A DNA stretch of 64,000 bases, from the NCBI GenBank assembly GCA_023379265.1, contig JAMCUI010000007.1, positions 82,330 to 146,329 on the forward strand, read 5' to 3'. Under the pieces are notes generated by a model that did no database searches, was not told the origin of the DNA, and saw only the letters and a list, made by a program, of their open reading frames with translations. The position numbers and the translations under genes are program-made. Origin of the DNA: Patescibacteria group bacterium. GTDB taxonomy: Bacteria; Patescibacteriota; Microgenomatia; 2-02-FULL-39-11. Positions within the stretch are counted from its first letter, which is position 1; each line of letters starts with the position of its first letter. Shown here piece after piece: positions 525 to 62,709 of the stretch.

Positions 525-1898
525 TTATCCAAAAAGTTTATTTTTTATCCCCATAATATCACCACGAATTTGTTCGTTTGTTGATAATAAATCTGTTATT
601 TTTTTTACCCCGTGAATTATAGTTGTGTGATCTCTACCACCAACTAAATTTCCAATATCTGCAAGGGGAACGTTTAATTCTGACCGCATAATATAGTAAA
701 GTATTTGTCGAGGTCTTGCCAAATTTCTATCCCTTCTTATTCCTTTTATCTGGGATGGTTTCAGGTTGAAATATGTAGCAACAGCATTCAGCGCGTCTTC
801 AAGTCTTACTCCATTTTTTTTAGGCATTTCTTTAATACTTTTTCCAAGAATATTTTTTACCAGATCAATATCGATTGGAACATCTCTTGTTTGAGATTCT
901 GTCAGGATACGGATGAGAACTCCTTCTAGTTTCCTCGGGTTTTCAATATTTGCTGCAAGAAGTTTTGCTAAATCTATTTTTAATTCAACTCCACGCTGTT
1001 TTGCTTTAATAAGAAGTATTGCGGTGCGTAATTCAAAGTCTGGTGGGCCAATATCTATAGATAGTCCTCCTTCAAATCGTGAACGCAATCTTGCTTCCAA
1101 CTTATTTATTTCTTCAGGCGGTTTGTCTGAAGTAAGCACTATTTGTCCACCCGCTTGTTGTATCGCGTTAAAAGTGTGGAAAAATTCCTCCTGTACTGCG
1201 TTTTTACCCGCAATAAACTGGATATCGTCAATGAAAAGCGCATTTGTTCTGCGGTATTTTTTCTTAAATGCGACAGTGGTTTTGTTTCCTATCGCTTCGA
1301 TAATATCGTTGGTAAATTCTTCTCCCGTACAGTAAATAATTTTCAGTTTAGGATTATTTTTTATAACAGAGTGACCGATTGCCTGCATTAAGTGTGTTTT
1401 TCCCACTCCGACCCCGCCGTATAAAAACAACGGATTGTAGGAAGCACCTGGAGATTTAGCAACAGCAGTGGCAGCAGCATATGCCATATGATTTGATGAA
1501 GAGACGGCAAAATTCTCGAAGGTATAATAATGATTGAGGTATGGGGGGGGAGTAATAATATTAAGGGATTGTTTTACCTTAAATAAAGGTTCATCAAAAA
1601 CTTTTTTATCAGAAATTACAGGGAGAGCCTTAAAAACAAGTTTGGCAGCAGTTTTTGTATAAGAGGTTAATGTTTTTTGTATTAAATCATAATATCTTTT
1701 TTCAATAAGGTTTATCAAAAGTGGTTGGTTACAGCCAATGATTGCTGTATCTTGGGTCAATTCTAGTAATTTGGTTTGCGACAGAAAGGTTTGAAAAGAA
1801 GCTTTGGTAATTTGTAGCTCTAAGTCGGCCAAAACAATCTGCCACAGTGTTTCCGTGTTCATAAAAAGATATCCACATCCTAAAAAAGTTATCCACAA
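525..1898 (-). CDS. dnaA: Chromosomal replication initiator protein DnaA
   Basis: 457 aa. AAA+ Walker A GGVGVGKTHL, Walker B LFIDDIQF, C-terminal DnaA box-binding domain (NVPLADIGNLVGGRDHTTIIHGVKKI). Confidence 0.95.
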   Translation of the reverse strand: MWITFLGCGYLFMNTETLWQIVLADLELQITKASFQTFLSQTKLLELTQDTAIIGCNQPLLINLIEKRYYDLIQKTLTSYTKTAAKLVFKALPVISDKKVFDEPLFKVKQSLNIITPPPYLNHYYTFENFAVSSSNHMAYAAATAVAKSPGASYNPLFLYGGVGVGKTHLMQAIGHSVIKNNPKLKIIYCTGEEFTNDIIEAIGNKTTVAFKKKYRRTNALFIDDIQFIAGKNAVQEEFFHTFNAIQQAGGQIVLTSDKPPEEINKLEARLRSRFEGGLSIDIGPPDFELRTAILLIKAKQRGVELKIDLAKLLAANIENPRKLEGVLIRILTESQTRDVPIDIDLVKNILGKSIKEMPKKNGVRLEDALNAVATYFNLKPSQIKGIRRDRNLARPRQILYYIMRSELNVPLADIGNLVGGRDHTTIIHGVKKITDLLSTNEQIRGDIMGIKNKLFG

Positions 1899-2027
1899 TT
1901 GTCAAGGTGCTTTAACTATTACTTTCTATAAACAATTATGCAAATTCCGTTTTAATCCTAACAATATGAATAGATTTGGATTAAAGATTTTATATTTAGT
2001 ATAAAATATGATATTATATAGAGCATT
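1860..2027. promoter_or_regulatory. DnaA boxes plus AT-rich unwinding-element-like stretch upstream of dnaA / rpmH
   Basis: TTATCCACA (perfect) and ATATCCACA at about 1868-1896. AT-rich run TTTATATTTAGTATAAAATATGATATTATATAG at about 1985-2020. Confidence 0.55.
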
Positions 2028-2165
2028 ATGACCAAAAGAACATTTCAACCAAAAAAGAAAAGAAGGGTTAGAGTACATGGCTTTCGCGGTAAAATGAAGT
2101 CTAAAAATGGCCGTCACGTCTTGGCTCGAAGAAGAGCCAAAAATAGGAAGAAACTCAGCGTTTAA
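2028..2165 (+). CDS. rpmH: 50S ribosomal protein L34
   Basis: Not in the ORF track (45 aa). Hand translation: [45 protein letters not shown], classic L34. Conserved position dnaA-rpmH-rnpA. Confidence 0.9.
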
Positions 2166-2169
2166 CCTC

Positions 2170-2511
2170 ATGTTGCCCAAAATACACCGTTTAACCATCG
2201 GTGACTTCAATAAAAACAATCAGAAACCCCAAAGATTTCACTCTATCAACTTGACTTTTTTTATAAAAACAAAAAAAAACAGTGAACCTTCCGGGTTTTC
2301 CATTTCCGTACCAAAATATTTGGACAAAAGAAGCGTTTATAGACATCAAACAAAAAGAATGATTTCTCAATTTTTAATTCCAGAACTAAGGGAAATTATT
2401 AACGGTTATGATATTCTTATTAAGCCCAAAAGGATTTTTTCGAAAAAAGAAGGCAAATTAATTAGTGAAGAGATATATAATCTTTTACATTCAGCAAAAC
2501 TGATTACTTAA
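2170..2511 (+). CDS. rnpA: Ribonuclease P protein component
   Basis: Internal Met of ORF 2107..2511: MLPKIHRLTIGDFNKNNQ... with basic RnpA-type segment SISVPKYLDKRSVYRHQTKRMISQFL. Synteny rpmH-rnpA-yidD-yidC. Confidence 0.8.
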   Translation: MLPKIHRLTIGDFNKNNQKPQRFHSINLTFFIKTKKNSEPSGFSISVPKYLDKRSVYRHQTKRMISQFLIPELREIINGYDILIKPKRIFSKKEGKLISEEIYNLLHSAKLIT

Positions 2512-2512
2512 A

Positions 2513-2737
2513 ATGAAAAAAAACACTCTTAAACTATTATCACTGTATAAAAAATATATTTCAAAAGGTATTTTGAGCGTTGTTTATCTAGGAGATTGCC
2601 GATTTCAACCAACTTGTTCTGAGTACACTTATCAAGCTGTAGGGAAGTATGGTACAATCAAAGGATTAATTTTAGGCGTTAAAAGAATTTTACACTGTAA
2701 TCCCTTGTTTAAGGGAGGATATGATCCTTTAGAGTAA
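2513..2737 (+). CDS. yidD: Membrane protein insertion efficiency factor YidD
   Basis: 74 aa; CRFQPTCSEYTYQAVGKYG...RILHCNPLFKGGYDPLE matches the YidD/haemolytic-domain signature. Confidence 0.85.
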   Translation: MKKNTLKLLSLYKKYISKGILSVVYLGDCRFQPTCSEYTYQAVGKYGTIKGLILGVKRILHCNPLFKGGYDPLE

Positions 2738-2740
2738 TTT

Positions 2741-3565
2741 ATGTTTAATCCGGGCAATCCTTTTGATTCATTTCTTGTAATACCAATCCTGAACGCTCTC
2801 GTGGCGGTTTATAAATTGATTTTGTTTTTCAAGCTTCCCGGTGCTTTCGGATTGGCGCTTATTGTGCTTACCGCCCTTATTAGAGTGGCGCTTAATCCTC
2901 TTATGGTGACGCAACTGAAAAGTGCCCATAAGCTGAGTAAGCTTAAGCCTGAACTTGATAGACTTTCTGAAAAACATAAGGATGATAAAAACAGGTTGCA
3001 TCAAGAACAGTTAAAGCTTTATCAGGAGGCGGGTATTAACCCTGCAGCGGGTTGTCTTCCCCTTCTTATACAAATGCCCATACTTCTAGGTTTATATAAC
3101 TTATTTTTTAAACTACTGAGTAATACCAATCTTGTACAAGTGACAAAGGAGATTAATAGCGTTCTTTATACCCCGTTTTTGAAAATAAGTACGATTAATT
3201 TATCGTTTTTCGGTATGGATTTAGCCCACAAACCATCAGACTGGTCAAAATATGGCATATGGTTGCTTTTGGTTCCCGTTGTGACGGCACTTCTTCAGTA
3301 TCTTCAAACAAGAATGATGACCCCCAAGACGCCGCAAACAGCACTTAAAAAAGTCGAGGATGAAAAGAATAAAGAAAAAAAAGAAGATATGGGGACAGCG
3401 ATGCAAAAACAAATGGCAATAATGATGCCTCTTATGATTGGATTTTTTTCCTACTCTTTTCCCCTTGGTTTGTCAATTTATTGGAACACTTTTACTATAT
3501 TTGGTATAATCCAACAGCGTCAGCTTAATAAAATCATGGAGAAAGAAAATGAAGAAAAAAGATAA
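2741..3565 (+). CDS. yidC: Membrane protein insertase YidC (short form)
   Basis: 274 aa, multiple TM segments, YidC/Oxa1 core (LTALIRVALNPL...QEAGINPAAGCLPLLIQMPILLGLY), lysine-rich tail. Synteny. Confidence 0.85.
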   Translation: MFNPGNPFDSFLVIPILNALVAVYKLILFFKLPGAFGLALIVLTALIRVALNPLMVTQLKSAHKLSKLKPELDRLSEKHKDDKNRLHQEQLKLYQEAGINPAAGCLPLLIQMPILLGLYNLFFKLLSNTNLVQVTKEINSVLYTPFLKISTINLSFFGMDLAHKPSDWSKYGIWLLLVPVVTALLQYLQTRMMTPKTPQTALKKVEDEKNKEKKEDMGTAMQKQMAIMMPLMIGFFSYSFPLGLSIYWNTFTIFGIIQQRQLNKIMEKENEEKR

Positions 3566-4046
3566 AGAAGTAAAACTTACAAGCGATATAAAAACAACTG
3601 TTTTAGAACTTATGGACAGGTTACATGTCGAAGGAAGTGTAGACGTGGAAGAAGAGAAGTCCGACCCTTCAGAAGAAGCCAATCATTTCAAAGTGGTAAT
3701 ACAAACAAATGAGACAGGACTTCTTATAGGTCGACATGGTGAGACTCTGAACAGTCTTCAGTTGATCTTGGGAGTGGTGCTTTATAAAAAGATGGGTAAA
3801 TGGATAAGGGTGATTTTAGATGTAGGAGATTATAGAAAAGTAAGGGAAGAGAGTATAAAAGAAATGGTGGGAAGAATTGTTGCTGAGGTTGAATCAATTG
3901 GACAGCCAGTTACACTACCTTATCTTACGCCACTTGAACGAAGGATTGTACATATAATGCTTGCTGATAATCCTAAGATTATGTCTGAGTCAACAGGCGA
4001 GGGAAAAGAAAGAAGGGTAACAATCAAACCTCGTCAGCAAGGTTAA
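3549..4046 (+). CDS. jag: Jag/KhpB-like RNA-binding protein (KH + R3H domains)
   Basis: VIQTNETGLLIGRHGETLNSLQ (KH-like) and TLPYLTPLERRIVHIMLAD (R3H). Downstream of yidC as in many bacteria. Confidence 0.75.
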   Translation: MKKKDKEVKLTSDIKTTVLELMDRLHVEGSVDVEEEKSDPSEEANHFKVVIQTNETGLLIGRHGETLNSLQLILGVVLYKKMGKWIRVILDVGDYRKVREESIKEMVGRIVAEVESIGQPVTLPYLTPLERRIVHIMLADNPKIMSESTGEGKERRVTIKPRQQG

Positions 4047-4084
4047 TTTAGCTAACAGTAGAACTTCATTAGTGTTGGATAGAT

Positions 4085-5362
4085 GTGAACTTGGCGTTGG
4101 TTTCTTTTTATATACTTCTACTTTTTTTACCGTCTCAACTCGGCAGACACTTTTTCCCAAATTTTTCCCTTGTTTCAGGTGTTATAAGCGATTATCTTAT
4201 ACCAGTCTTTTATTTCACAGATTTTTTAATTATTTTAACCATATTTCTATACATTCTTGAAAATTGGCATAATTGGCTAAGACCTAAGTATTCCTCTTGG
4301 GCGATTTTAATCCTAACAGTTCTAATTTATTTATTTTTCAATAGTACGGTCATTGCTTCAAATAAATGGGTTGCGGTTTATAAGATGGTAAAAATCGCAG
4401 AATTTATTCTTTTAGGACATGTTGTTTATAGGTTGAAACCGAAACTTTTATCAGTTTTATCCGTTCTTTCAATTTGCACGGTTTACTCATCGGTTTTATC
4501 GGTTTGGCAGTTTGTGTCCCAGAAATCGGTAGGTGGATTGTTTTACTGGTTGGGTGAAAGGACATTTAGCTCCAACACTCCAGGAATAGCGGTGTTTTCC
4601 CTAAATGGACAACTTATACTTCGGTCATATGCCACTTTTCCTCATCCAAATGTCCTAGGAGGTTTTCTTGCTATTTTGCTGCCGGCGTTTTTATTTCTAC
4701 TTATTAACAGAAAAAAGATGAAAATAGAGATGAGAGGTTATTATTGGTTTTTATTTGCTTTGACTCTTGGTATTGTTTCTTTAGTTTTAACTTTTAGCAG
4801 AGCAGCGTGGATAATTACTCTTTTGGGATTTTTTCTAGTTGTTATGCAGAAAAAAAAGGTTGACCTGTTAAATATCCTAAAAAATAAAAATCTGGTATTA
4901 TTTTTATTTTATACTCTAATGTTCCTGTCTGTTTTTACGCTTCTTGTTTTTCCCCAGGGAGAAAAAATTATTGGTGGCAAGAGTTGGTCTCAAAGGGCAG
5001 TCCTTGATAAAACAGCGTTGGTCTTAACCTTGCAACATCCGCTTCTTGGTATAGGATTGAACAATTTTGTAGTGCAGGCGCACAGTGTTATAAATAACTA
5101 TTCTGATATATATCTTTTACAACCAGTCCACAATTTTTACCTATTAATTTTGGTAGAAACTGGTTTAATAGGATTTGCCATTTTCTTACTATTTATTGAT
5201 TTAGTATTAGATTGGAGTATTAAATCAGGTTTAATTGTATTAATTATCGAGTTACTCCTTTTTTCATTGGGATTTTTTGACCATTATCTTTTTACTTTGC
5301 AGCAAGGTCAACTATTTTTTACCATTTTTACTTCTCTTGCTTTGATTCCTCGTAAAATCTAA
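4085..5362 (+). CDS. O-antigen ligase / Wzy_C family polytopic membrane protein
   Basis: 425 aa, >=10 TM helices. Wzy_C-like block SVINNYSDIYLLQPVHNFYLLILVETGLIGFAIFLLF (H...HN..L....E.G..G). Confidence 0.55.
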   Translation: MNLALVSFYILLLFLPSQLGRHFFPNFSLVSGVISDYLIPVFYFTDFLIILTIFLYILENWHNWLRPKYSSWAILILTVLIYLFFNSTVIASNKWVAVYKMVKIAEFILLGHVVYRLKPKLLSVLSVLSICTVYSSVLSVWQFVSQKSVGGLFYWLGERTFSSNTPGIAVFSLNGQLILRSYATFPHPNVLGGFLAILLPAFLFLLINRKKMKIEMRGYYWFLFALTLGIVSLVLTFSRAAWIITLLGFFLVVMQKKKVDLLNILKNKNLVLFLFYTLMFLSVFTLLVFPQGEKIIGGKSWSQRAVLDKTALVLTLQHPLLGIGLNNFVVQAHSVINNYSDIYLLQPVHNFYLLILVETGLIGFAIFLLFIDLVLDWSIKSGLIVLIIELLLFSLGFFDHYLFTLQQGQLFFTIFTSLALIPRKI

Positions 5363-40994: not shown

Positions 40995-41001
40995 CATATA
41001 A

Positions 41002-41883: not shown

Positions 41884-41901
41884 CGTAAAAATTGCTTCGC
41901 A

Positions 41902-41932: not shown

Positions 41933-41936
41933 CTAA

Positions 41937-42011: not shown

Positions 42012-42168
42012 CCAGAAATTTCAGAGTTTTTTAGTGGGTTTATTCAAAACGTCATAGGTGAGATTGAATTAAGAATTGTAATGCTCTTTATATCAATAAT
42101 TTTGGTTAGTGAGAAGAGCTGTATTAAATCAGAAAATAATAATAGGAATTAAAGAATTAATGGTGGAT

Positions 42169-42678: not shown

Positions 42679-42889
42679 ATATAGCTATCTAATTATACAT
42701 TGGTTTTAATTTAAAAGATAATTAATGATATTAAGTCAATACTATATTTTTTACACTAGGAACTTAAAACTTGTGTAATCGATAAATTCTGTTATAGAGG
42801 TTGTTCGAAATCTGTTCCATTCTACCCGCCCAAGTTATTGGATTCATGTAAAATCTCCCTTTTAACTCCTGGTATAATTTAAGAGCTAT

Positions 42890-43387: not shown

Positions 43388-43538
43388 TAATGTTTTGCGC
43401 TAAGAGTCTCTTGTGGTAAGTTCCGACATGGTCAACCAGCCGCCAGATTTAATATAGAACTCTACGAGTTTATAAATACCTACTTGTAATATATCTCACA
43501 AACAGATAATCTACATACTTGTAAGGAGCAATAAAAGT

Positions 43539-44507
43539 ATGCCCAAAAAGCGAGGTAAAAAAATTATTGACGTTACCGTCCGGCCGACAAACGCCGCCGA
43601 TTTGGACACTGCTGACAAAGTTATCCGTCTGGCTTTTGGGACTCTCTTTGGGATGCCAGACCCCATGCAGTTTTTAGGCGATGGAGATCTCGCTCACACC
43701 CGTTTTAAGACTGACCCAGCGGGCATACTCTCTGCAGAAATTGACGGTCAACTAGTCGGAACCAGTTTTGCGACCCGTTGGGGCAGCGTCGCTTTCATTG
43801 GTCCCCTCACAATCCATCCGGACTACTGGAACAGGGGTATCGGTCAGAAGCTGATGGATCAAACAATGGAGATTTTAAGGAAATGGAATGTTTCTCTGGC
43901 GGGATTGTTTACTCTTCCTGACAGCCCCATGCACATACATCTTTATGAGAAGTACGGTTTCCGAAAACAAGAGTTGTCACCCCTTGTTTCAAAAGCAGTC
44001 ACTTCCCACGAAAATAAATCGGAATATAAGTCCTACTCCCGACTATCTCCTGGTGAACAAAAAAAGATACTCACTCAATGTAAAGAATTGACTGACAGAA
44101 TATATCCCGGACTGGATCTGACAAAAGAGATCATTTCTGTAAACTCACAAAAAATTGGAGACATGGTACTTGTTTCAGAAAATGAGAAGCTTATGGGTAT
44201 GGCTGTTTGCCATTTCGGGGCTGGTAGTGAGGGCGGAAGCGGTGTGAATTATATTAAGTTCGCAGCTATAAGACCGGATCCTAAAGCTGCTGAGTATTTT
44301 GAGAAGCTGCTTGATGCGATTGAATCTTTTGCGTCAGGGAAAAATCTCGTGAGCATCATGTTTGGAATTAACACGATTAATAAAGATGCCTTTGAAAGAG
44401 TGCAGAAACGCGGCTATACCCACGACTTTGCCGGAGTCATTATGCAATTGCATAATGTTCGTGGTTACAGGAGTTCGGATCTTTTTGTTTTGGATGACTG
44501 GAGGTAA
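43539..44507 (+). CDS. GNAT family acetyltransferase (two-domain / extended)
   Basis: VRPTNAADLDTADKVIRLAFG..., WNRGIGQKLMDQTMEILRKW (Q/R-x-x-G-x-G/A motif). 322 aa. Confidence 0.65.
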   Translation: MPKKRGKKIIDVTVRPTNAADLDTADKVIRLAFGTLFGMPDPMQFLGDGDLAHTRFKTDPAGILSAEIDGQLVGTSFATRWGSVAFIGPLTIHPDYWNRGIGQKLMDQTMEILRKWNVSLAGLFTLPDSPMHIHLYEKYGFRKQELSPLVSKAVTSHENKSEYKSYSRLSPGEQKKILTQCKELTDRIYPGLDLTKEIISVNSQKIGDMVLVSENEKLMGMAVCHFGAGSEGGSGVNYIKFAAIRPDPKAAEYFEKLLDAIESFASGKNLVSIMFGINTINKDAFERVQKRGYTHDFAGVIMQLHNVRGYRSSDLFVLDDWR

Positions 44508-44548
44508 GGGAAGATGTTTCTAAAGGTAAGAGTGATGTTAGTTTAAGG

Positions 44549-44586
44549 AAGCAAAACAGGTTTTAACACTGTAAACGGTGCCCCGC
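44549..44586 (+). repeat. Dispersed ~40-bp repeat, copy 1 (AGCAAAACAGGTTTTAACACTGTAAACGGTGCCCCGC)
   Basis: Shares the consensus AGCAAArrAGGTTnTAACACTGTAnAyGGTkCyCCGC with five other copies; 42 bp after the GNAT stop. Confidence 0.7.
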
Positions 44587-44629
44587 AATCGAAAATTATC
44601 CTCGGAATTAAATAGAGAAGATACCATCT

Positions 44630-45000
44630 TTGGATTTTAGTATAATAAGCCTAATGAATGTCCGGTTTGCCATGCCAAAAGACAAAGCTAAAATCCTTAA
44701 TCTATTTGATGAGTTTAGTATTTTTATGGACGCTACAGATATACCCTCAAAAGTTGGCGGGGAAATATTTGATGAAATTATTAATAGAGGGGACATATTG
44801 AGGACCTTTTCATCACAAGTAACTCACGTGGTCGTGGTGTAGGAACATTTCTCTTAAATTCGATTAAGGACTGCTGTCGAAAAAATGATATAAAGGTTAT
44901 AAAATTAGATAGCGGAAATAACCTTGTAAGTGCCCATCATTTTTATGAGAAGAATGGTGGAAAGACTACGGAAAGGTTTTTCAGATTTGATATTGATTAA
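44630..45000 (+). pseudogene. GNAT acetyltransferase interrupted by a -1/+1 frameshift at a GGGG run
   Basis: Frame A 44630..44842 gives the GNAT N-terminus ...EIINRGDILRTFSSQVTHVVVV*. Frame +2 from about 44785 continues ...HIEDLFITSNSRGRGVGTFLLNSIKDCCRKNDIKVIKLD...AHHFYEKNGGKTTERFFRFDID* (GNAT motif A and C-terminus). Junction at AGAGGGGACA. Confidence 0.6.
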
Positions 45001-45070
45001 AGGTTAATATACTTTTTGCAGATATAGACTAATCGGCATGATTTACATATAATGATGGCAGTAGATATAA

Positions 45071-45625
45071 TTGATATTAATATTACTTATGACTACTCCT
45101 GCCGACCAGAAAAAAATTTCTCTTGACCAGCCTGACCTGAATGAAATCCTCCTTTCCTGGAAAAGTCCCTCACACCCGTTTAAGAAGCGAAACAGGATAT
45201 TTTACCAAACTGTTGCGGCAATTACTTTCCTTTTAGTGGTAATAGTATTTTTCCTTCACGAATTTATGCTCATGGGAGTTATACTTTCCATTGCTTTTCT
45301 GGTTTATGTACTGTCGACAGTGCCACCAATAGAAGTAGAACACAAAGTGACACCGATAGGTTTTGAAAATGCCGGCAGGCTCTTCCGCTGGATTGAGCTT
45401 GCGGCCTTTTGGTTTGAGGAAAAATGGGGATACAGGACTCTAGTAGTACAAACTAGAATTCCATTTCCTGTTCAGGTGCGCGCAGTAATGGGAAAAGATT
45501 TGTCAAAAGATAAAATTAAGGAAGTTATAGGGAAATACCTTTTGTATATGGAAAAACCGCAAAAGACCTGGACTGATAATTTTTCCGACTGGCTCAACCA
45601 AAAAATCCCTCTGGAAAACTCTTGA
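45071..45625 (+). CDS. Hypothetical membrane protein
   Basis: 184 aa, two central TM helices. No family recognised. Confidence 0.4.
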   Translation: MILILLMTTPADQKKISLDQPDLNEILLSWKSPSHPFKKRNRIFYQTVAAITFLLVVIVFFLHEFMLMGVILSIAFLVYVLSTVPPIEVEHKVTPIGFENAGRLFRWIELAAFWFEEKWGYRTLVVQTRIPFPVQVRAVMGKDLSKDKIKEVIGKYLLYMEKPQKTWTDNFSDWLNQKIPLENS

Positions 45626-45758
45626 TCTGCCTTAAAATTTCTCAATTCACAATTTTTATATAAAGAGTAATTAATGATATAATTTATCGCTCGGAGAAAA
45701 GATATATTGATGATTTTGGGATATTTCTAAAGAGAGAATATAATAGTTTTAGACCTTT

Positions 45759-45830
45759 GTCCCCGTAGCTTAACGGATAGAGCGCGGCCCTGCGGAGGCT
45801 GATATATGAGTTCAATTCTCATCGGGGACG
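45759..45830 (+). tRNA. tRNA-Arg with apparent anticodon GCG (unusual); CCA not encoded
   Basis: GTCCCCG/CGGGGAC acceptor, D-arm GCTTAACGGATAGAGC, anticodon stem CGGCC/GGCTG, loop CTGCGGA, T-arm ATGAGTTCAATTCTCAT. 72 nt. Confidence 0.65.
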
Positions 45831-45962
45831 CAGAACAAAATTTGATGATTTTTTCTGCATAATCGTACTATTATTTTGATTTATCCGGAAAATTTCATGA
45901 GAAATTATTAGGGAGTTATGGAGGAAGCGGTTAACTAGTGGGTCTCGAACCAAGTAATTGGC

Positions 45963-46052
45963 GGTGGGGTGTCAGAGAGGTCTATTGGCCAGGTCTCGAA
46001 AACCTTGGGGGTCGTAAGGCCCACGCGAGTTCGAATCTCGCCCCCACCGCCA
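45963..46052 (+). tRNA. tRNA-Ser (anticodon CGA), class II, CCA encoded
   Basis: GGTGGGG/CCCCACC acceptor, D-loop AGAGAGGTCTAT (Ser-like), anticodon loop CTCGAAA, long variable arm, T-arm GCGAGTTCGAATCTCGC, discriminator G + CCA. ORFs 45935..46162(-), 45938..46165(+) and the 5' part of 45969..46550 are translations of this RNA gene. Confidence 0.6.
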
Positions 46053-46061
46053 ATTATTGGA

Positions 46062-46081
46062 CGAATCTCGCCCCCACCGCC
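46062..46081 (+). repeat. Direct repeat of the last 20 nt of tRNA-Ser(CGA) (GAATCTCGCCCCCACCGCCA), 9 bp downstream of the tRNA
   Basis: Exact 20-nt match between 46033..46052 and 46062..46081. Confidence 0.85.
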
Positions 46082-46103
46082 AAAAATAATTTTCAAAACA
46101 ATT

Positions 46104-46550
46104 ATGACCAGAGAATTTTCAGCCGGGGGAATAGTCTTCAAAAAACAAAGAATAATAAACAATAAACAAAAGCTTGTTTGGCTGGTTGCACAGCATAGTC
46201 AGCATAAGGGTTGGGTTTTTCCAAAAGGACTAATTGGTGATCATATAAAAGGTGAGTCCAGCAGCGATACTGCTTTGAGGGAAGTAGAGGAGGAAACAGG
46301 AGTAAAGGGTAGGATTTTGGAAAAGCTGAAAAAACCCGCTACTTATTTTTATATCTGGCAGGGGGATAAAAGATTCAAGACTGTATATTATTTCCTGATG
46401 GAATATGAGAGTGGAGATATAGAGAAACACGATTTTGAGATGTCGGCTGTCGAGTGGTTGCTGACTGAGGAAGTGGAAAAACGCCTGAGTTACAAATCTG
46501 ATAAACTGGCTTTTCAGGAAGCATTGAAGATAATGAAGAATTATGAATAA
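46104..46550 (+). CDS. Nudix hydrolase
   Basis: Nudix box GESSSDTALREVEEETGVKG. Start taken at MTREFSAGGIVFKK (46104); the upstream in-frame extension is the tRNA. Confidence 0.8.
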   Translation: MTREFSAGGIVFKKQRIINNKQKLVWLVAQHSQHKGWVFPKGLIGDHIKGESSSDTALREVEEETGVKGRILEKLKKPATYFYIWQGDKRFKTVYYFLMEYESGDIEKHDFEMSAVEWLLTEEVEKRLSYKSDKLAFQEALKIMKNYE

Positions 46551-46585
46551 TGAATTAATGAGGAAGACTTCCTGATTCAAGTTTT

Positions 46586-46657
46586 GCTCTTGTAGCTTAA
46601 CGGATAGAGCGCGGCCCTCCGGAGGCTGATATGCGAGTTCAATTCTCGCCAAGAGCG
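46586..46657 (+). tRNA. tRNA-Arg (anticodon CCG); CCA not encoded
   Basis: GCTCTTG/CAAGAGC acceptor. Body identical to the 45759 tRNA apart from the anticodon loop (CTCCGGA) and T-stem/acceptor positions. Confidence 0.75.
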
Positions 46658-46701
46658 CAGTAAAATTGCTCACGATTTTACTGCGTAAACACCGACAATG
46701 T

Positions 46702-47268
46702 ATGAAAAATAAAATTTCTGATTTTATTTTTGAAGCTTCTACCTTAAAAAGTCTTAAGAGAACCGGCTGGCAGATATTGGGAGGAAATAAGGAATCTATT
46801 GCTGAGCATTCATTTATGGCTGCTGTGATAGCTTATACTCTTGCAGCACAAATCGGAGCAAATAAAGAGAAAACGGTTCTAATGGCTCTTTTCCATGATT
46901 TAGGTGAAGCGCGGACAGGAGATGTGTACAAGCTGGCCGATTTATATGTCTCAGCAGACAATGTAAAAGCCACGAAAGACGCTTTGGCAAAATTGCCTGA
47001 TTCTGGTACAATTGAAAAACTTTTTTCCGAATACGAAGAAGAGAAAACCCTGGAATCAAAAATCGTCCATGATGCGGATACTCTGGCCCTTGTTGTCGAG
47101 CTGAAAAAGATGATGGAGAATGGTAACGAAAATGCAAAGGAGTGGTTTGAGGCAAACTATAAATGTTTACGCTTGGATATTTCAAAAGAAGTGTTTAAGG
47201 AAATAAAAGAAGGCAATAGCCAGGATTGGTGGAAAAAGGAAAGAAAAAAGATTCACGACAGTTTTTGA
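46702..47268 (+). CDS. HD-domain phosphohydrolase (YfbR-like 5'-deoxynucleotidase family)
   Basis: HSFMAAVIAYTLA...LFHDLGEARTGDV (H...HD...D metal-binding motif). Start chosen at MKNKISDF, after the tRNA and hairpin. Confidence 0.7.
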   Translation: MKNKISDFIFEASTLKSLKRTGWQILGGNKESIAEHSFMAAVIAYTLAAQIGANKEKTVLMALFHDLGEARTGDVYKLADLYVSADNVKATKDALAKLPDSGTIEKLFSEYEEEKTLESKIVHDADTLALVVELKKMMENGNENAKEWFEANYKCLRLDISKEVFKEIKEGNSQDWWKKERKKIHDSF

Positions 47269-47283
47269 TTCTTGATGTTTTTA

Positions 47284-47371
47284 GGAAGGGTCGCATAGTT
47301 GGTCTAGTGCGAACGCTTGGAGAGCGTTTATATCCGCAAGGATATCGTGGGTTCGAATCCCACCCCTTCCG
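47284..47371 (+). tRNA. tRNA-Ser (anticodon GGA), class II; CCA not encoded
   Basis: GGAAGGG/CCCTTCC acceptor, anticodon arm AACGC-TTGGAGA-GCGTT, variable arm TATATCCGCAAGGATATCG, T-arm GTGGGTTCGAATCCCAC. ORF 47226..47561 overlapping it is spurious. Confidence 0.8.
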
Positions 47372-47535
47372 CAAGTATCCTATAGTTCTAAGAGACTCGC
47401 ATAATATCTCGGATAGTTTTCATTGTGTTTCTATATGTCTTCAAAATCAGTATTTCCCTTTCTTTAAAAACCTGAAGATTTATTTTTCACCAAATGTTCA
47501 TCTTTTATTAATAATATGCTATTGTTGGGAAAACT

Positions 47536-56398: not shown

Positions 56399-57844
56399 TT
56401 ATTTATATTGGGTATACCACCCCGGATCCACTTTTTCCTTCTTTGAAAAATAAACTTGTGTATCGGTAATTTCCGTTTCGGTATAATTTGGATCCATCTT
56501 CAATCTCTCAAAAAGAGTCTTGTATTCTCCCTCCGGTAGCGGCCAGAAGTTGTTGGGATTTTGTCCCGGGCGAAGATCAAGCGCGATAGTCTGGGGCAGA
56601 TACTGCCAGTATTTATCCCGTAAAAGCATTACGTTATGAGTATGTGTCAGTTGCGGTGCCAGATTATTTAGTGTCATGACCAGTCCTTTGTCCGGTATTT
56701 TTGTCAAGAAAGTCCTCAGGAAGTTCAAATCTTTGGTATGCGCATAAAATGCAGGGTTATATGCTAGCCCCAAGGGCCCATGCAGTTTCAAATGGAGAAA
56801 AATCGCCAAAAATATAATTCCTATAGCATGAAAAGTAGCAATTTTTCTGTAGACTTTCATTTCCATCAGTTTTTTTATACCCAAAATGCTTCCGTAAACC
56901 AGAAGAAAGGCAGCGATAGCGTTGTAATGGAGGCCCAGGTCAAGCCGGGCACTGGTGCCGGAGATGACAAACCTGATAAAGTAATCCTGGAGAATAACCG
57001 GCAGGAACAATGGGCTAAATAAGGGTAGGAAGGAGAAGGAAAGAAATGAAAGAGCAAGAGTGCCTGTTTTCACTAAAGGATAGAAAAACTGGGTTACCAT
57101 AGTGGAAATCGAATACTGGTTGGGAATATAGGCAAAAGGCCTACTGGCCAGATACGGCATTATTATTTTTACCGATATGAAGTAATAGGCAAGAGAATAG
57201 GTAAAAGTAAGAATTCCCTGTTTATAGTTTTTCCTCAAAATAAGATATATACCAAGGACAGTTCCAAAAATGACAAATGTTTCCTTTGTACCCAAAGTCA
57301 ATATAAAAAATAGCCAATACCAATGCCATTTTTTTCTCTCGAGTGCAAGAAAAGTTAATCCCAGAGTCAGAAGTGCGATAAATTCACTATGGAAATTGGA
57401 GATGACTGCATTTTGCAGTCCGACAAAAAGAGTGTACGTAATAATGGTGGAGAATAACAGCAGTTTGTTTTTTATCTCTCGGCCGAGAAAAATTAACATA
57501 CCTGCGCTTGCCGTTATGATTGCATTTTGTACGACAAGAATTGCGGTATAGGAAGAGGTAAGCCAATAAAGGGGTATAAGAAGTAGAATGGTTGGATCAA
57601 AGTGGTCACCGAATTGGTTGAGAAGATGATTTTCCACGTGATCAATAAGAGGGGCCCTGAAATGCGCCAGGTTCCATAGTGCCTGGTCATATATTCCGTG
57701 ATCAAAATAATAAGCTTCAAACTGCCAGAAGCGGTTCAGGACTACAAGGTTTAAGACTATGAAATAAACAGTGAGATAAATGATGATAAACCACCAGTCT
57801 TTGAAAAAAACGGATAACGTCCTGGAAAATGATTTTGCAGACAT
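56399..57844 (-). CDS. Large polytopic membrane protein, possible GT-C-type glycosyltransferase / DUF2079-like
   Basis: 481 aa, >=10 TM helices with a soluble C-terminal domain. Confidence 0.35.
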   Translation of the reverse strand: MSAKSFSRTLSVFFKDWWFIIIYLTVYFIVLNLVVLNRFWQFEAYYFDHGIYDQALWNLAHFRAPLIDHVENHLLNQFGDHFDPTILLLIPLYWLTSSYTAILVVQNAIITASAGMLIFLGREIKNKLLLFSTIITYTLFVGLQNAVISNFHSEFIALLTLGLTFLALERKKWHWYWLFFILTLGTKETFVIFGTVLGIYLILRKNYKQGILTFTYSLAYYFISVKIIMPYLASRPFAYIPNQYSISTMVTQFFYPLVKTGTLALSFLSFSFLPLFSPLFLPVILQDYFIRFVISGTSARLDLGLHYNAIAAFLLVYGSILGIKKLMEMKVYRKIATFHAIGIIFLAIFLHLKLHGPLGLAYNPAFYAHTKDLNFLRTFLTKIPDKGLVMTLNNLAPQLTHTHNVMLLRDKYWQYLPQTIALDLRPGQNPNNFWPLPEGEYKTLFERLKMDPNYTETEITDTQVYFSKKEKVDPGWYTQYK

Positions 57845-58023
57845 AATTATTGGAAATATAGATTAATTGTAGCCTAAGATGCAGTCTGTTGCATGTGTAG
57901 ATATTATTTGTGTTACCGGGTAAAATTGGTATAATTCCCTTTACCAACTGGAGATGTGTTGAAGTTTATGAATAATAGGAGTCAGTCTTGAAGCGCTAAT
58001 TGGAATAAGCAGTAATAACTGCA

Positions 58024-58110
58024 GGAGAGGTGCTGGAGTGGTTGAACAGGCTAGTCTTGAAAACTAGTATATCCGCAAGGATATCGTGGGTTCGAATCCC
58101 ACCCTCTCCG
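58024..58110 (+). tRNA. tRNA-Ser (anticodon TGA), class II; CCA not encoded
   Basis: GGAGAGG/CCTCTCC acceptor, anticodon arm CTAGT-CTTGAAA-ACTAG. Variable arm + T-arm identical over 37 nt to tRNA-Ser(GGA) at 47284. Confidence 0.8.
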
Positions 58111-58238
58111 CAGGATCAAAACATCAATTGAAGCAGGATTGACAGGGGCTGAGATTATAACCTAAGTGTTGTCTTTTTTAAATTCCATGATGATGAACTA
58201 GAAGAGAAATATTTTAAGTAGACAATTGATACTTTTCT

Positions 58239-58880
58239 TCATTTGTTTACAATCTTTCTTAATCCTTCCTGTAGAGTTTTACTGATCAGATCTTCCAGTA
58301 ATGACAAGTTTCCTTTATCTGCCTGTTGCATCGCAGTGATATATTGTTTTCTGTCAGATTTTTCATCTGTTTTTATCTCAATTCCAGGTAAATCTAACTT
58401 TAGTAATATTAAAATTGTCAGCATTCTTGCAATTCTACCGTTATAATCCTGAAAAGGATGAATAAATACAAATCTATGCTGGAACCAGGTTAATAATTTG
58501 ACTGCCTCAATAATAAACTCGCTAGATTTTGGGTTGGGTAAATATTTTAATCTTTCTTCCAAATCATTGCAAAGGTTTATCATTAGTTCCGGTATTAGGA
58601 AAAATTGCGGTGTTTCTTTTCCTGAAATAGTTACTTGTATCTTTCTGTACTTCCCAGCCCAATCAGGAAATATCCACTGGAAAGAAATTTCATGCAGTTT
58701 GCAGATTAACAGAGGTGTAATTTTTACGTCCTTATCACTACTTATCAGATCATAAATATAATCAAGCCCTCTTTTTGTTCCTTCAATTTCAAGTTTAAGA
58801 AGTTTTGATCGGGGAATAATACCAAAAGCTGTTTCTTTATATGAAGTTGCACCTTTTGGTTTTGTTGAAGCTTTTTTCAT
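58239..58880 (-). CDS. Fic-family protein (toxin-like) with variant active-site motif HPFQDYNGR
   Basis: FIHPFQDYNGRIARML matches the Fic core HPFx[DE]GNGRxxR except G to Y at position 6. 213 aa. Confidence 0.75.
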   Translation of the reverse strand: MKKASTKPKGATSYKETAFGIIPRSKLLKLEIEGTKRGLDYIYDLISSDKDVKITPLLICKLHEISFQWIFPDWAGKYRKIQVTISGKETPQFFLIPELMINLCNDLEERLKYLPNPKSSEFIIEAVKLLTWFQHRFVFIHPFQDYNGRIARMLTILILLKLDLPGIEIKTDEKSDRKQYITAMQQADKGNLSLLEDLISKTLQEGLRKIVNK

Positions 58881-58883
58881 TTA

Positions 58884-59060
58884 TCATTTGAGTACTGATG
58901 AAACCATCTTACGTGTAACAGGTTCTCCTTCAAGCTTGGTTGTCCGAAATATAATTTCAGGAATCAAAGCACGGAAAAATCCCAACACTGGTTTACCCTT
59001 TTTTGCAGTACGGTATTTAGAATATGCTTGTAATAGTTTGTTTTCATTCTTTTTGCTCAT
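58884..59060 (-). CDS. Small protein carrying the Fic inhibitory-helix motif (class I Fic antitoxin-like, VbhA-type)
   Basis: ...IIFRTTKLEGEPVTRKMV contains TTKLEG = [ST]xxxE[GN]. Ends TGA-TAA immediately before the Fic ATG. Start at MSKKN (59060) or further upstream (59138). Confidence 0.55.
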   Translation of the reverse strand: MSKKNENKLLQAYSKYRTAKKGKPVLGFFRALIPEIIFRTTKLEGEPVTRKMVSSVLK

Positions 59061-59184
59061 ATTTAAAGTATATAACTTTCCAGAAGCTAAATAAAGGTCT
59101 ATATACAGCCGTAAGACTATTACATCAATAAAAAACACTAGAATATAGGTTGTTCAATTAATAATTTGTTGGTATAGTTGAGTT

Positions 59185-59535
59185 ATGGATAAATTCAGAA
59201 AGAACAATTTATCGGATATTCCAATTGAAGAAGCTCATGGAGGTTCTGGTTCTCGTCAGGTATTAGTAAAGCCCGAACAAGTTACAAGTAAATACTTTGA
59301 AGCCATGACAAAGGGATTTCTTAAATCTGGAGGGGTATTTGACTGGCATACGCATAATGATACAGATGAAGTGTTTATTGTATTAAAAGGACATGGCAAA
59401 TTTTATTGTGAAGAAAAAATAACAGAATATGATGAGGGAGACATTGTAATTATTCCTGCAAATCTTAAGCATAAAATTGAAGCTAGTGGAGATATAACCA
59501 ATGAATACTATTTTGTCAGAGTAAGAGCAAAGTAG
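59185..59535 (+). CDS. Cupin-domain protein
   Basis: DWHTHNDTDEVFIVLKGHG...GDIVIIPANLKHKIEA (cupin_2 two-motif pattern). Confidence 0.65.
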   Translation: MDKFRKNNLSDIPIEEAHGGSGSRQVLVKPEQVTSKYFEAMTKGFLKSGGVFDWHTHNDTDEVFIVLKGHGKFYCEEKITEYDEGDIVIIPANLKHKIEASGDITNEYYFVRVRAK

Positions 59536-59562
59536 GTTCTAACACTGTATATGGTGCCCCGC
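59526..59562 (+). repeat. Dispersed repeat, copy 2 (AGCAAAGTAGGTTCTAACACTGTATATGGTGCCCCGC)
   Basis: Overlaps the last codons and stop of the cupin gene. Followed by GC-rich hairpins (CTTCGGTCGCCGAAG; GGTCGCC...GGCGACC). Confidence 0.7.
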
Positions 59563-59711
59563 CTTCGGTCGCCGAAGCTTCACGCGGAGGCGACCTTTAT
59601 CCTGGTAAAGACACTAATTCTAAGGGAGAAACTGCTACTCTTGGGCGACCTACATAGACAAAGTCCCCTTGAGAGAATAAATTGATGTGTTTTTCTTGAG
59701 TACATCTTGTA

Positions 59712-60044
59712 ATGGTTTGTTATAATAATCACCCTATGACTGTTTCAGACGGTGTGGTGCATAAAGTTCCAGTGGATTTACGGGAAGCTTTAACTTCTGA
59801 TCTAAAAGCGCTCGCCTTATGGGAAAACCTTACGCCGCTTGCACGCAATGAATGGATATGCTGGGCAACCTTCCCTAAAAAGTTGGAAACCAGAAAACAA
59901 CATGTTGAAAGAGTCATCACGGAACTTAAAGAAGGAATGCGCAGACCTTGTTGTTGGATTGGTTGTATACACCGTAAGGATAAATCAATAAGCCCTTCGG
60001 TGCAGTATATACTTAATAAACGATTTAAAAGTAGATCTAAGTAG
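59712..60044 (+). CDS. YdeI/OmpD-associated (bacteriocin-protection-like) family small protein
   Basis: LALWENLTPLARNEWICWATFPKKLETRKQHVERVITEL resembles the YdeI/DUF1905-type family signature. Confidence 0.45.
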   Translation: MVCYNNHPMTVSDGVVHKVPVDLREALTSDLKALALWENLTPLARNEWICWATFPKKLETRKQHVERVITELKEGMRRPCCWIGCIHRKDKSISPSVQYILNKRFKSRSK

Positions 60045-60098
60045 TCACGATCAAGAAAAGGTGAGTTGTTGATAGGTAAATTGATTTATCGAAGAAGA

Positions 60099-60134
60099 AG
60101 CAAAGTAGGTTATAACACTGAAATGGTTCTCCGC
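60099..60134 (+). repeat. Dispersed repeat, copy 3 (AGCAAAGTAGGTTATAACACTGAAATGGTTCTCCGC)
   Basis: In the intergenic region after the YdeI-like gene. A partial copy ATAGGTTGTTCTACGGCC follows at about 60158. Confidence 0.7.
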
Positions 60135-60188
60135 AATTTCTGGCAAGGACAAATAATATAGGTTGTTCTACGGCCTTAAAACTCATTT

Positions 60189-60210
60189 TAGGTTCTAACA
60201 CTGTAACGGG
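60189..60210 (+). repeat. Dispersed repeat, copy 4, truncated (TAGGTTCTAACACTGTAACGGG)
   Basis: Shares the TAGGTTCTAACACTGTA core. Confidence 0.6.
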
Positions 60211-60402
60211 TTGTGTCTTCGAAACCTTTTTAATTACTTTTTAAATAAAATGTATGGAAATGAGTAATCATTGTGAAGACAAGATTATTTATATAAAATA
60301 TCAATATATGGAAGAAAAATCTGACGAAAGTCAACCGTCGCACTTACCTTCCCCGTAATCCTTCGGGCTCTTTTACCCGTAAGGAACGGGTAGAAAGAAG
60401 CC

Positions 60403-61683
60403 ATGATTAAAATTCTAAGCATCATCATATTTCTTGTTGGTTATATCGTTATCTCGCAGGAACATTTACTGAAGGTAAGTAAAACTTCTATCAGTCTGAT
60501 TATCGATGTAGTCTTATGGTTCTTAGTGATTGCCAGCGGTAACAATAATATCGGATTAGCATTATCAGAAGCTGGTAGTGAGATTTTCGGATTGGTTATA
60601 TTTCTTCTCTCAGCAATGACACTGGTTGAAATTCTGACCCATTATGGACTGTTTGATTATATCTATAACTGTTTGATTATATCTATATAAGATTAGTGAA
60701 ACTGCATCTTGGAGATAAAACCCAGTTTTTTATCATTGCTCTCCTTACTTTTCTTTTCTCAGCTTTCCTTGACAACTTAACCACTACTATAGTTTTTTTA
60801 CAGATATAAAGTAGATTCTTCAGTGGTAAAAACCTGATGAAATCAGCGGCAGTAATAGTGATTGCCGCCAATGCGGGTGGCGCCTTTTCTCCCATCGGGG
60901 ATGTTACAACAACCATGTTGTGGCTTGCCAATAAGTTTACAACACAAACACTTTTTACTCAGGCTTTTCTTCCATCTCTAACTGTATTTTTGGTGAGTAC
61001 TCTTTTAATAGGTAGATCAATCACAACCGACACGAAGGATAAAATCGAAAAAGCAGTAAGATTGGGGAAAACAGAGTGGTTGATTATTAGCCTTTGTCTT
61101 CTTTCTTTCCTTTTGCCGTTATTTATGACTGTTCTTCACTTACCGCCGTATATAGGTTTACTGTTTGGATTGGGGATCATCTGGTTGGTGGTTGATTTGG
61201 CAAAACACCGTACACCTCATAGTTCCATTCTTTCCATGTCAATTGAAAAGTTTTTCCAAAAGACTGATATAGCCAGTCTCTACTTTTTTATTGGTATTCT
61301 GATGGCGATTGCTGCACTTAGATACATAGGAATATTAGACGAGATATCACAAAAAGTTTTTACCGAAACACCATCAACAGTCAGGATTATTACTGGAAAT
61401 ATCGCTATCGGGGGGTTATCCGCAATCTTTGACAATATACCTCTTACAGCAGCTGCAATTGATATAGTCAAGACCACTGATGCAAACCTGGGCTCTTTTG
61501 GCTTTAACGGTTGGAATAGGCGGCTCACTGCTTCTTATCGGTTCTGCACCCGATATTGTAGCGATGGCAATAATTAAGGAACTTAGCTTTACCGCATATT
61601 TAAGGATCGCTACGATTCCTGCATTGATAGCCTATTGTCTTGGTATTACCGTGTGGATTTTACAGTATAATCTATTTAAATAA
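60403..61683 (+). pseudogene. NhaD/ArsB-type ion transporter gene broken into >=4 frame pieces
   Basis: Pieces 60403..60690, about 60690..60800 (...LGDKTQFFIIALLTFLFSAFLDNLTTTIVFL), 60837..61577 and 61480..61683 are consecutive segments of one ArsB/NhaD-like permease in different frames. A 20-bp tandem duplication at 60648..60687 causes the first shift. Confidence 0.65.
60648..60687 (+). repeat. Perfect 20-bp tandem duplication (ACTGTTTGATTATATCTATA x2) inside the transporter pseudogene
   Basis: Read directly from the sequence. Length not a multiple of 3, so it is frameshifting. Confidence 0.85.
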
Positions 61684-61684
61684 T

Positions 61685-62320
61685 ATGAGTTATTGGAAGC
61701 ATTGGAAATATAAACATCTTACCTTCTTTATCATAAGCATCATTTTTGTTGCTCTGCTTACCAAACTAGAAATATTCCATCAAACCCTTATTCACCTTGG
61801 AAATTTCGGATATATTGGAGCATTTTTTGCCGGTATATTGTTTGTTTCTACCTATACTGTCAGTATCGGAGCATTACTTCTACTGATTCTGGCGGAATAC
61901 TTAAATCCTATCGAAATTGCCTTAATAGCCGGATTGGGTGCGGTATTTGGCGATTATGTAATATTCAGACTGGTTAAGGACAATTTAGTTTATGAACTGG
62001 CAGATATCTATAATCACTTTGGCGGTAAACATCTGTCACATCTTCTGCATACCCGTTATTTCAGCTGGTCTCTGCCTGTAATCGGAGCTTTAATAATTGC
62101 TTCACCTCTACCTGATGAGATGGGGGTAGGACTGTTGGGTATAAGCAAGATGAGTACCTATTCCTTATTCTGTCTTTTATACTTAACTCAATTGGAATAT
62201 TTATTGTCGTATCAGCTTCCGTATTGGTTAAGCCTTAACAAAAGCGGGATTCTGAATATACGAAGGAAACCCGAAATAGGTTATAATACTGTAAATGGTT
62301 CTCCGCCTTCGCCTCGCTGA
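61685..62320 (+). CDS. Hypothetical polytopic membrane protein; 3' end runs into a copy of the dispersed repeat
   Basis: About 211 aa, ~6 TM helices. The last ~14 codons (IGYNTVNGSPPSPR) are encoded by the repeat element. Confidence 0.45.
   Translation: MSYWKHWKYKHLTFFIISIIFVALLTKLEIFHQTLIHLGNFGYIGAFFAGILFVSTYTVSIGALLLLILAEYLNPIEIALIAGLGAVFGDYVIFRLVKDNLVYELADIYNHFGGKHLSHLLHTRYFSWSLPVIGALIIASPLPDEMGVGLLGISKMSTYSLFCLLYLTQLEYLLSYQLPYWLSLNKSGILNIRRKPEIGYNTVNGSPPSPR
62273..62306 (+). repeat. Dispersed repeat, copy 5 (GAAATAGGTTATAATACTGTAAATGGTTCTCCGC)
   Basis: Forms the 3' end of ORF 61685..62320. Followed by a 150-bp GC-rich multi-hairpin stretch. Confidence 0.65.
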
Positions 62321-62466
62321 AGTCCCGATTACATCGGGACGAAAGCGGGCTTCGCCCGTTCAGCTCGGCTTCGGCGAGATAAAATCCGCTTTCAGATCGA
62401 CGTAGCTTCATGCGAAGTCGTCTTTTACCTCGACGTAACTTTAGTGAAGTTGGGTATAATTAACTC

Positions 62467-62709
62467 ATGTTTTGGTATGTTTATATCCTTAGGTGTAAGG
62501 ATGAAAGATTTTACATCGGTTGTGCAGATAATCTGAAAGATCGAATAGAAAGACACCAAAAATGCCAAGTCCCAGCCACAAAAGATCGCCTTCCCATAAA
62601 ACTTATTTCTTACTTCGCATTCTCCAATAAATACACCACATTCAATTTCGAGAAATATCTCAAATCCGGTTCAGGAAGAGCGTTTGTAAAGCAACACAAA
62701 TTCGTATAA
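62467..62709 (+). CDS. GIY-YIG nuclease-domain small protein (UPF0213-like)
   Basis: MFWYVYILRCKDERFYIGCADNLKDRIERHQ is the GIY-YIG motif with conserved Arg and His. 80 aa. Confidence 0.7.
   Translation: MFWYVYILRCKDERFYIGCADNLKDRIERHQKCQVPATKDRLPIKLISYFAFSNKYTTFNFEKYLKSGSGRAFVKQHKFV

Follow-up and report, generated by a model that had tools for sequence, protein, structure and literature searches.

Does the small protein encoded directly upstream of a Fic gene in a Patescibacteria genome inhibit the Fic enzyme, and what does a tyrosine in the signature loop mean for the activity of that enzyme? The question is raised by a locus in a stretch of 64,000 nucleotides from a Patescibacteria group bacterium (assembly GCA_023379265.1, contig JAMCUI010000007.1, positions 82,330 to 146,329 of the forward strand), here called the window. 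Classification of Fic proteins and prediction of their activity rest on the HxFx(D/E)GNGRxxR loop and on the origin of the inhibitory glutamate. An earlier note, made from the nucleotide sequence alone, had proposed a class I Fic toxin-antitoxin-like pair next to a tRNA-Ser gene. The results suggested that the two genes probably form a genuine bicistronic, translationally coupled module of the class I type, both in architecture and in the inhibitory role of the small protein. A toxin/inhibitor pair of this kind is known; what is new is the combination of a FICD-like core, a putative class-I-style inhibitor acting in trans and an invariant tyrosine.

The gene pair and its conservation

The two genes lie on the minus strand. 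The small partner gene (58884..59060) encodes 58 aa (MSKKNENK...TTKLEGEPVTRKMVSSVLK; in full, MSKKNENKLLQAYSKYRTAKKGKPVLGFFRALIPEIIFRTTKLEGEPVTRKMVSSVLK) and stops with TGA at 58884..58886, and the Fic gene (58239..58880) encodes 213 aa. The small open reading frame (ORF) ends in ...RTTKLEGEPVTRKMVSSVLK and is followed by TGA-TAA-ATG (58878..58886), in which TGA ends the small gene, TAA is a 3-nt spacer and a stop codon in its own right, and ATG starts the Fic gene. The codons at the junction read CTC AAA TGA TAA ATG, and in the window both ORFs share one frame. A separate small ORF does precede the Fic gene in the same orientation, with TGA-TAA between the two, as the earlier note had described. 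Its limits were corrected. The small ORF had been taken to end at ...EGEPV, and it extends 10 residues further (...TTKLEGEPVTRKMVSSVLK). The upstream limit at 59138 is a mechanical GTG start that gives an ORF of 84 aa. Because most homologues and the NCBI record are 55–59 aa long, the start was assigned to ATG 59060; the NCBI record, a 'hypothetical protein' from the same contig, is identical to the 58-aa partner.

No Shine-Dalgarno-like sequence was evident at the partner/Fic junction of the window, which fits termination-reinitiation coupling. Rfam, promoter and terminator scans around the module found only the gene for tRNA-Ser(TGA) (58024..58111, plus strand), a convergent neighbour 127 nt from the Fic stop.

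The family was compared at 31 loci, namely the window and 30 loci from species-representative genomes. A small ORF with the conserved glutamate lay directly upstream of the Fic gene at all 31. The junction was a 3-nt spacer at seven loci (including the window), an ATGA overlap at nine, TAATG at two and 6–18 nt at six; at one further locus it was an 11-nt overlap with an uncertain start. These varied short junctions and overlaps point to translational coupling. The family is found in many Patescibacteria, mostly Microgenomates. In at least four copies (L009, L023, L025 and L030), the Fic gene was degraded by an in-frame stop, a truncation or a frameshift, and the small ORF was intact.

The inhibitory motif of Fic antitoxins is defined as (S/T)xxxE(G/N) (PMC3667792). 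It is matched in the partner by TTKLEG (58926..58943, minus strand), with Glu44 as the putative inhibitory glutamate. A database search returned 108 partner homologues, mostly of 55–59 aa, of which 103 carried TTKLEG and four more TTALEG or TTRLEG. The block EII.RTTKLEGE..T (E35 to T49) was invariant in an alignment of 30 partner sequences. At divergent loci of the family, the motif read TTRLEG, TTKLED, TMRLEN, TTKIEN or NTKIEH, and the glutamate was kept in every variant. A separately encoded inhibitory segment is the operational meaning of class I (PMC3667792), and the pair, with a small upstream gene carrying (S/T)xxxE(G/N), has that arrangement.

Relation to known Fic systems

The 213-aa product matched PF02661 at 6.9e-13 (49.7 bits against a cut-off of 24), and it is a member of the Fic/Fido superfamily by profile and predicted fold. 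A word-indexed search gave 1105 Fic homologues, of which the closest 120 were all 205–222 aa long. The signature HPFQDYNGRIAR (His141...Arg152) lies at 58425..58460 on the minus strand. H141, P, F, D145, Y146, N147, G148, R149 and R152 were invariant in the Fic alignment, and the catalytic set of His141, Asp145, Asn147, Gly148, Arg149 and Arg152 is complete.

The best sequence match in the Protein Data Bank (PDB) was human FICD, a class II protein, at 6.6e-10. In the AlphaFold2 (AF2) model of the concatenated partner and enzyme, the Fic part reached a pLDDT of about 90, and FICD was again the top match in Foldseek (E=1e-8, rmsd about 2 Å, about 186 columns), followed by EfFic, EcFicT and VbhT. 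Profile-profile comparison with class II relatives of 250–470 aa carrying SNAIEGNT gave a probability of 100%, and in the hhalign alignment the Fic protein began at residue 13 (SYKET...), immediately after the class II SNAIEGNT. The N-terminal element STKPKGATSYKET (residues 5–17; 58830..58868, minus strand) is conserved in the Fic alignment and contains the invariant Pro8; it falls at the class II SNAIEG if the hhalign register is extended. Residues 14–23 were modelled by AF2 as a beta-hairpin with a pLDDT of 80–87. By eye, the partner tail TTKLEGEPVTRKMVSSVLK is colinear with TVAIEGNTLTLSEIRHILE of FICD, and the N-terminus of the Fic protein continues the FICD alignment. The pair thus resembles a class II protein of the FICD type in which the inhibitory N-terminal segment is encoded by a gene of its own.

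A further likeness was observed within the pair. Fic residues 21–34, IIPRSKLLKLEIEG (58779..58820, minus strand), in which E31 and G34 are invariant, resemble LIPEIIFRTTKLEG of the partner (58926..58967, minus strand), strongly enough to derail co-alignment of the two proteins by MAFFT. The likeness may be coincidental, or it may echo the inhibitory element within the Fic protein.

The pair was compared with the class I FicTA systems VbhA/VbhT of Bartonella schoenbuchensis, EcFicA(YhfG)/EcFicT of E. coli and Fic-1/AntF of Pseudomonas. It shares with them a small gene immediately upstream of a Fic gene of about 200 codons, the (S/T)xxxE(G/N) motif in the partner and the second Arg of the Fic motif, and the Fic cores superpose by predicted fold, as the matches to EcFicT and VbhT indicate. 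It differs in that no similarity between the window partner and any solved chain could be detected, FICD of class II is a closer match to the Fic core than the FicT toxins are, Tyr stands at the first Gly of the signature, and the host belongs to the Patescibacteria. Class II proteins (human FICD/HYPE, C. elegans Fic-1, BT_2513 and SoFic) gave the best sequence and fold matches. As in class II, the window Fic ORF aligns from just past the inhibitory motif to the C-terminus, and ...EGEPVT of the partner resembles the class II ...EGNTLT. Unlike in class II, all family members have the inhibitory element on a polypeptide of its own, TPR and other accessory domains are absent from the window pair, and the loop reads DYNGR instead of DGNGR.

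In the proposed mechanism, the 58-aa partner would supply the (S/T)xxxE(G/N) element in trans. By analogy with VbhA/VbhT, EcFicA/EcFicT and the cis helices of FICD and SoFic, it would bind the Fic core and set Glu44 against Arg152, so that the nucleotide donor could not bind productively. Loss of the partner through stress, proteolysis or possibly phage infection would then free the Fic enzyme to modify a cellular target and arrest growth, following a toxin or abortive-infection logic. The partner/Fic complex may itself be the reverse, de-modifying enzyme, as a class I complex acting as a deAMPylase has been described (PMC13327609). The proposal draws on analogy with these systems for the binding itself, for contact between Glu44 and Arg152 and for toxicity, and likewise for the donor nucleotide, the target and the trigger.

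The signature tyrosine and the Phe branch

The signature HPFQDYNGRIAR departs from the canonical AMPylating signature HxFx(D/E)GNGRxxR at the first Gly alone, where Tyr146 stands (codon 58443..58445, minus strand). HPFxDYNGRxxR was found in 120/120 closest Fic homologues, and Tyr was found at 29/29 genome loci with a readable motif. The substitution reported in the earlier note is therefore genuine and conserved. That note had also said that its reading would fall if the motif region was not conserved in homologues; with TTKLEG in 103/108 and the DYNGR Tyr in 120/120, this comparison did not refute it.

When 1.84 billion representatives were searched exhaustively, 3435 matched at E<=1e-3. Among the best 150 of these, the loop was visible in 113, and the first-Gly position was occupied by Gly in 49, Phe in 42, Tyr in 20, Thr in 1 and Leu in 1. 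A rough neighbour-joining tree grouped the sequences with Tyr or Phe into a single block, apart from those with Gly, with one exception. The aromatic residue, as judged from these alignments, is an old, clade-defining feature under selection together with the full catalytic set, which argues against an inactivated enzyme. The earlier suggestion that the Tyr might inactivate AMPylation is accordingly unlikely, all other catalytic residues being invariant.

Full-text literature searches for DYNGR or DFNGR together with Fic found nothing relevant. A non-Gly residue at the first-glycine position of the active-site loop is also present in AnkX and Doc. Doc has Ala at the first Gly and Lys at the second, and its chemistry is other than AMPylation. 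Fic proteins that deviate from the motif are expected to have other activities, and AnkX, with HxFxDANGRxxV, carries out phosphocholination (PMC3667792). Unlike the window protein, AnkX combines Ala at this position with a change of the final Arg to Val (PMC3667792); the window changes the first Gly alone, to a bulky aromatic residue.

The Phe sequences form a sister branch in which the counterpart of STKPKGATSYKET is (S/A)TR(Y/F)xET. Fic domains of this branch were found C-terminal on restriction-modification enzymes of the Eco57I/MmeI/TaqI_C type, on Cas3 helicase-nucleases and on a Cas GSU0054 protein. The HPFxDFNGR fusions comprised Cas3-Fic (P0332, P0335, P0345, P0294 and P0319), restriction-modification-Fic (P0253, P0269 and P0244) and Cas GSU0054-Fic (P0339). 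A metagenome scan with the Phe-branch alignment gave 80 loci. Stand-alone HPFxDFNGR Fic genes of about 200 codons had an overlapping upstream ORF of 65–90 aa, and the Phe-branch partner read ...HRxVLLERVxQSM(T/A)FE(G/N)xPV(T/S)xxRLKxLL. This partner family was colinear with the window partner family over 52 columns (hhalign E=3e-4, probability 40%). A partner of this kind is therefore a feature of the aromatic clade as a whole, and its functional connection with the enzyme gains weight from this.

In fusions of Fic to type IIG restriction enzymes, an inhibitor-like ORF of 70–75 aa (SMAFENQPVS) was nested in the +1 frame over the region coding for a low-complexity linker. At locus L103, for example, the small ORF (3795..4019) lies inside a long ORF of 1277 aa (764..4597); L100, L104-L118, L125, L131, L134-L136 and others show the same arrangement. 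On synonymous resampling of the small ORF, the long frame was open in 0.2–9% of trials per locus, whereas it was observed open at 13/13 non-redundant loci, which share ancestry and are not independent. Over the same nucleotides, mean identity was 62% in the small-ORF frame and 46% in the linker frame. The inhibitor gene may be indispensable, surviving out of frame after fusion of Fic to the type IIG enzyme. The linker motif HG[VIL]R is a frame-shifted shadow of SM[AT]FE. It was present in most fusion linkers, not in P0339, and it also occurs in the Cas3-Fic fusion proteins. This footprint in the protein sequences suggests that the Cas3 fusions carry a nested inhibitor ORF too.

The N-terminal extensions of Phe-branch proteins of 240–340 aa were considered as fused inhibitor domains and ruled out; they are out-of-frame read-through of the partner ORF.

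An explanation compatible with the inhibitor reading is that Tyr or Phe marks a changed chemistry, with another donor, another transferred group or a non-protein target. 'AMPylation toxin' would then be a misnomer, even if inhibition works as proposed. This is a possibility to be taken seriously, short of being the probable one. It is favoured by the invariance of the clade-defining aromatic residue and by the fusion partners of the Phe branch, which act on DNA, but all phosphate- and metal-binding residues (D, N, the second G and both R) are kept, and a Tyr at this position could still contribute its backbone amide to the anion nest. The Tyr/Phe clade may also be, again tentatively, a separate defence-linked Fic lineage with a chemistry or target unlike classical protein AMPylation. 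Its target might be a nucleic-acid-associated substrate, given the restriction-enzyme and Cas3 fusions, and the window pair would be the free-standing Patescibacteria form of the module.

Genomic setting and the weighing of alternatives

The position beside a tRNA gene had been taken in the earlier note as fitting a mobile addiction or defence module. No repeat of the tRNA-Ser 3' end was found in 57800..62500, and hence no att repeat. The annotated neighbours in the window (a cupin gene, OmdA, a decayed CitMHS gene and DUF2079) include no integrase. A tRNA gene lay within about 1 kb at about 10 of the 31 family loci, with differing identities (His, Ser, Leu and Trp). The link between the tRNA and mobility was not borne out, the tRNA being a weak argument for it, and no evidence was found that tRNA-Ser is part of the module.

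Gene neighbourhoods around the family loci were not conserved and showed no synteny. On three long contigs that were annotated, the neighbours were housekeeping genes; small genes of toxin-antitoxin type (HicA or DUF4258/DUF2283) lay close by on two of the three, and an rve integrase lay about 4 kb from the pair on one. The GC content over the module, 0.32–0.33, was little below the 0.37 of the whole window. Generic traits of type II toxin-antitoxin systems were observed, namely a small coupled bicistronic operon, a variable location and occasional decay, and one generic antitoxin trait, an autoregulatory DNA-binding domain, was not: no Pfam or NCBIfam domain matched the partner. Known FicA antitoxins are likewise not known to have a DNA-binding domain. 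With no synteny and with degraded copies, an accessory toxin-antitoxin-like cassette fits better than a core regulator; this pattern does not prove mobility.

The core-regulator alternative holds that the pair is a stable two-subunit regulatory enzyme whose complex reversibly modifies a housekeeping target, as with FICD/BiP and EfFic. The glutamate would serve de-modification, and the partner would never be released. The closest solved relatives, FICD and Fic-1, are bifunctional AMPylases/deAMPylases, and the deAMPylase activity reported for a class I complex (PMC13327609) points the same way, as do the largely housekeeping neighbours and the very wide distribution and high conservation of the family within one phylum. 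However, the lack of a conserved neighbourhood, together with the degraded copies, would be unusual for a core regulator, and restriction and CRISPR enzymes are the fusion partners of the nearest relatives. A regulatory enzyme is rather improbable.

With respect to defence, the window Fic protein matched two PADLOC profiles. PDLC04839 of the phage-defence candidate PDC-S04, a profile with no curated cut-off, was matched at 1.5e-25 over profile positions 23–203 of 205, and the SoFic profile at 1.7e-13. SoFic is an accepted Fic-based defence system with a small antitoxic protein, and the idea of abortive infection by a Fic enzyme that a small protein neutralises is established (PMC12249575). Unlike in the window, where the partner is encoded upstream, the small antitoxic protein AS1 of SoFic is encoded downstream.

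Several observations weigh against the reading of the pair as a toxin and its inhibitor. The motif [ST]xxxE[GN] occurred in 3/41 mechanical ATG-started ORFs of 50–70 aa in the window (about 7%), and the short motif alone would be weak evidence; its significance rests on the comparison of homologues. Neither the partner nor its profile matched any PDB chain at E<=10, save one chance hit, in a library that contains the VbhA and EcFicA complexes (entries 3shg and 5jff). No sequence homology to VbhA- and EcFicA-type antitoxins was thus found. Comparison of the partner family with class II Fic N-termini by hhalign gave nothing significant, and homology of the partner to known inhibitory helices was statistically not demonstrable at the level of sequence. 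The AF2 model of the partner alone, made with the family alignment, showed helices at 3–20, 25–40 and 47–57 with low confidence. TKLEG was placed in a loop (41–46) after the second helix with a pLDDT of 56–65, and E44 was among the low-confidence residues. In the concatenated model, residues 26–70, which include TTKLEG, had a pLDDT below 50, and alignment depth over the partner was lacking. The non-canonical signature means that ATP and AMPylation cannot be assumed. The window module lies among housekeeping genes and not in a recognisable defence island; no match to it was found in a phage collection, and only distant Fic genes with the canonical Gly were found in a plasmid collection. PDC-S04 lacks validation to date, and its deletion had no defence phenotype in one test (bioRxiv 10.1101/2024.12.20.629700).

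Two further explanations fare much worse than a regulatory enzyme. That the Fic protein is a catalytically dead scaffold and the small protein an unrelated co-transcribed gene is very improbable: the signature is non-canonical, and a motif as short as that of the partner could arise by chance in a single sequence, but His, Asp, Asn, Gly and both Arg are invariant, and the partner motif is invariant in the family and recurs in the partner of the sister branch. Least probable of all, and refuted as a recent event by the frames and by the conservation of two ORFs across the 31 loci, is a class II Fic gene newly broken by a nonsense mutation, with the small ORF as the detached N-terminal helix of a pseudogene: the shared frame in the window with TGA-TAA alone between the ORFs and the colinearity with FICD by eye would suit it, but the ATGA and TAATG overlaps put partner and enzyme in different frames, none of the 120 closest Fic homologues exceeds 222 aa, both proteins are under strong purifying selection, and the Phe sister branch has the same two-ORF arrangement. 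The split is thus, on the sequences compared, ancient and maintained in different frames. The earlier note had raised the possibility that the small ORF is the N-terminal helix of a longer Fic split by a nonsense mutation; the colinearity with the class II N-terminal region stood, and the nonsense split did not.

Some other features of the surroundings were recorded. A gene of 900–970 codons lies directly upstream of the pair at L010, L015 and L027 and nearby at L021. Its product at L010 and L015 has a Cys-rich tail of the ...PC.CGS...KKC type, presumably a SecA C-terminus. On the Pontibacter kalidii plasmid NZ_CP111080.1 (L082), a distant Fic gene (62053..62631) with HPFVNGNGR is flanked by genes annotated as ATP-dependent endonuclease and helicase and by a TaqI-like restriction gene, a defence-type neighbourhood.

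Within the window, a 17-nt motif, TAGGTTCTAACACTGTA, occurs four times (88–100% identical) near gene ends, at 59533–59549, 60106–60122, 60189–60205 and 62277–62293, and had no Rfam match; after its first copy comes a G+C-rich stretch (about 59551–59600), and the region is otherwise A+T-rich. The CitMHS-type transporter gene (60403–61577) is split into several ORFs, with its frame shifted by a perfect 20-nt tandem duplication (60648–60687); removal of one copy rejoins two pieces, and since a further stop remains, the gene is either decaying or affected by an assembly error. A tmRNA gene was found at 40561–40997 (110 bits), and five tRNA genes (Ser-gct, Arg-gcg, Ser-cga, Arg-ccg and Ser-gga) were found at 41794–47372. 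Counting Ser-tga at 58024, four serine tRNA genes lie within 17 kb.

The reading of the pair as a Fic enzyme and its inhibitor bears on more than 1100 database proteins, which form an unnamed family and are labelled merely 'Fic family protein' or 'hypothetical protein'. Through the sister branch, the module is tied to restriction-modification and CRISPR-Cas3, and the type IIG fusions offer a clean case of a nested, out-of-frame inhibitor gene. The host organisms have tiny genomes and are thought to depend on host cells, and every module that they retain is informative. If the Tyr alters the donor or the target, the family would represent a new Fic activity; if it is neutral, the family would simply be another FicTA family.

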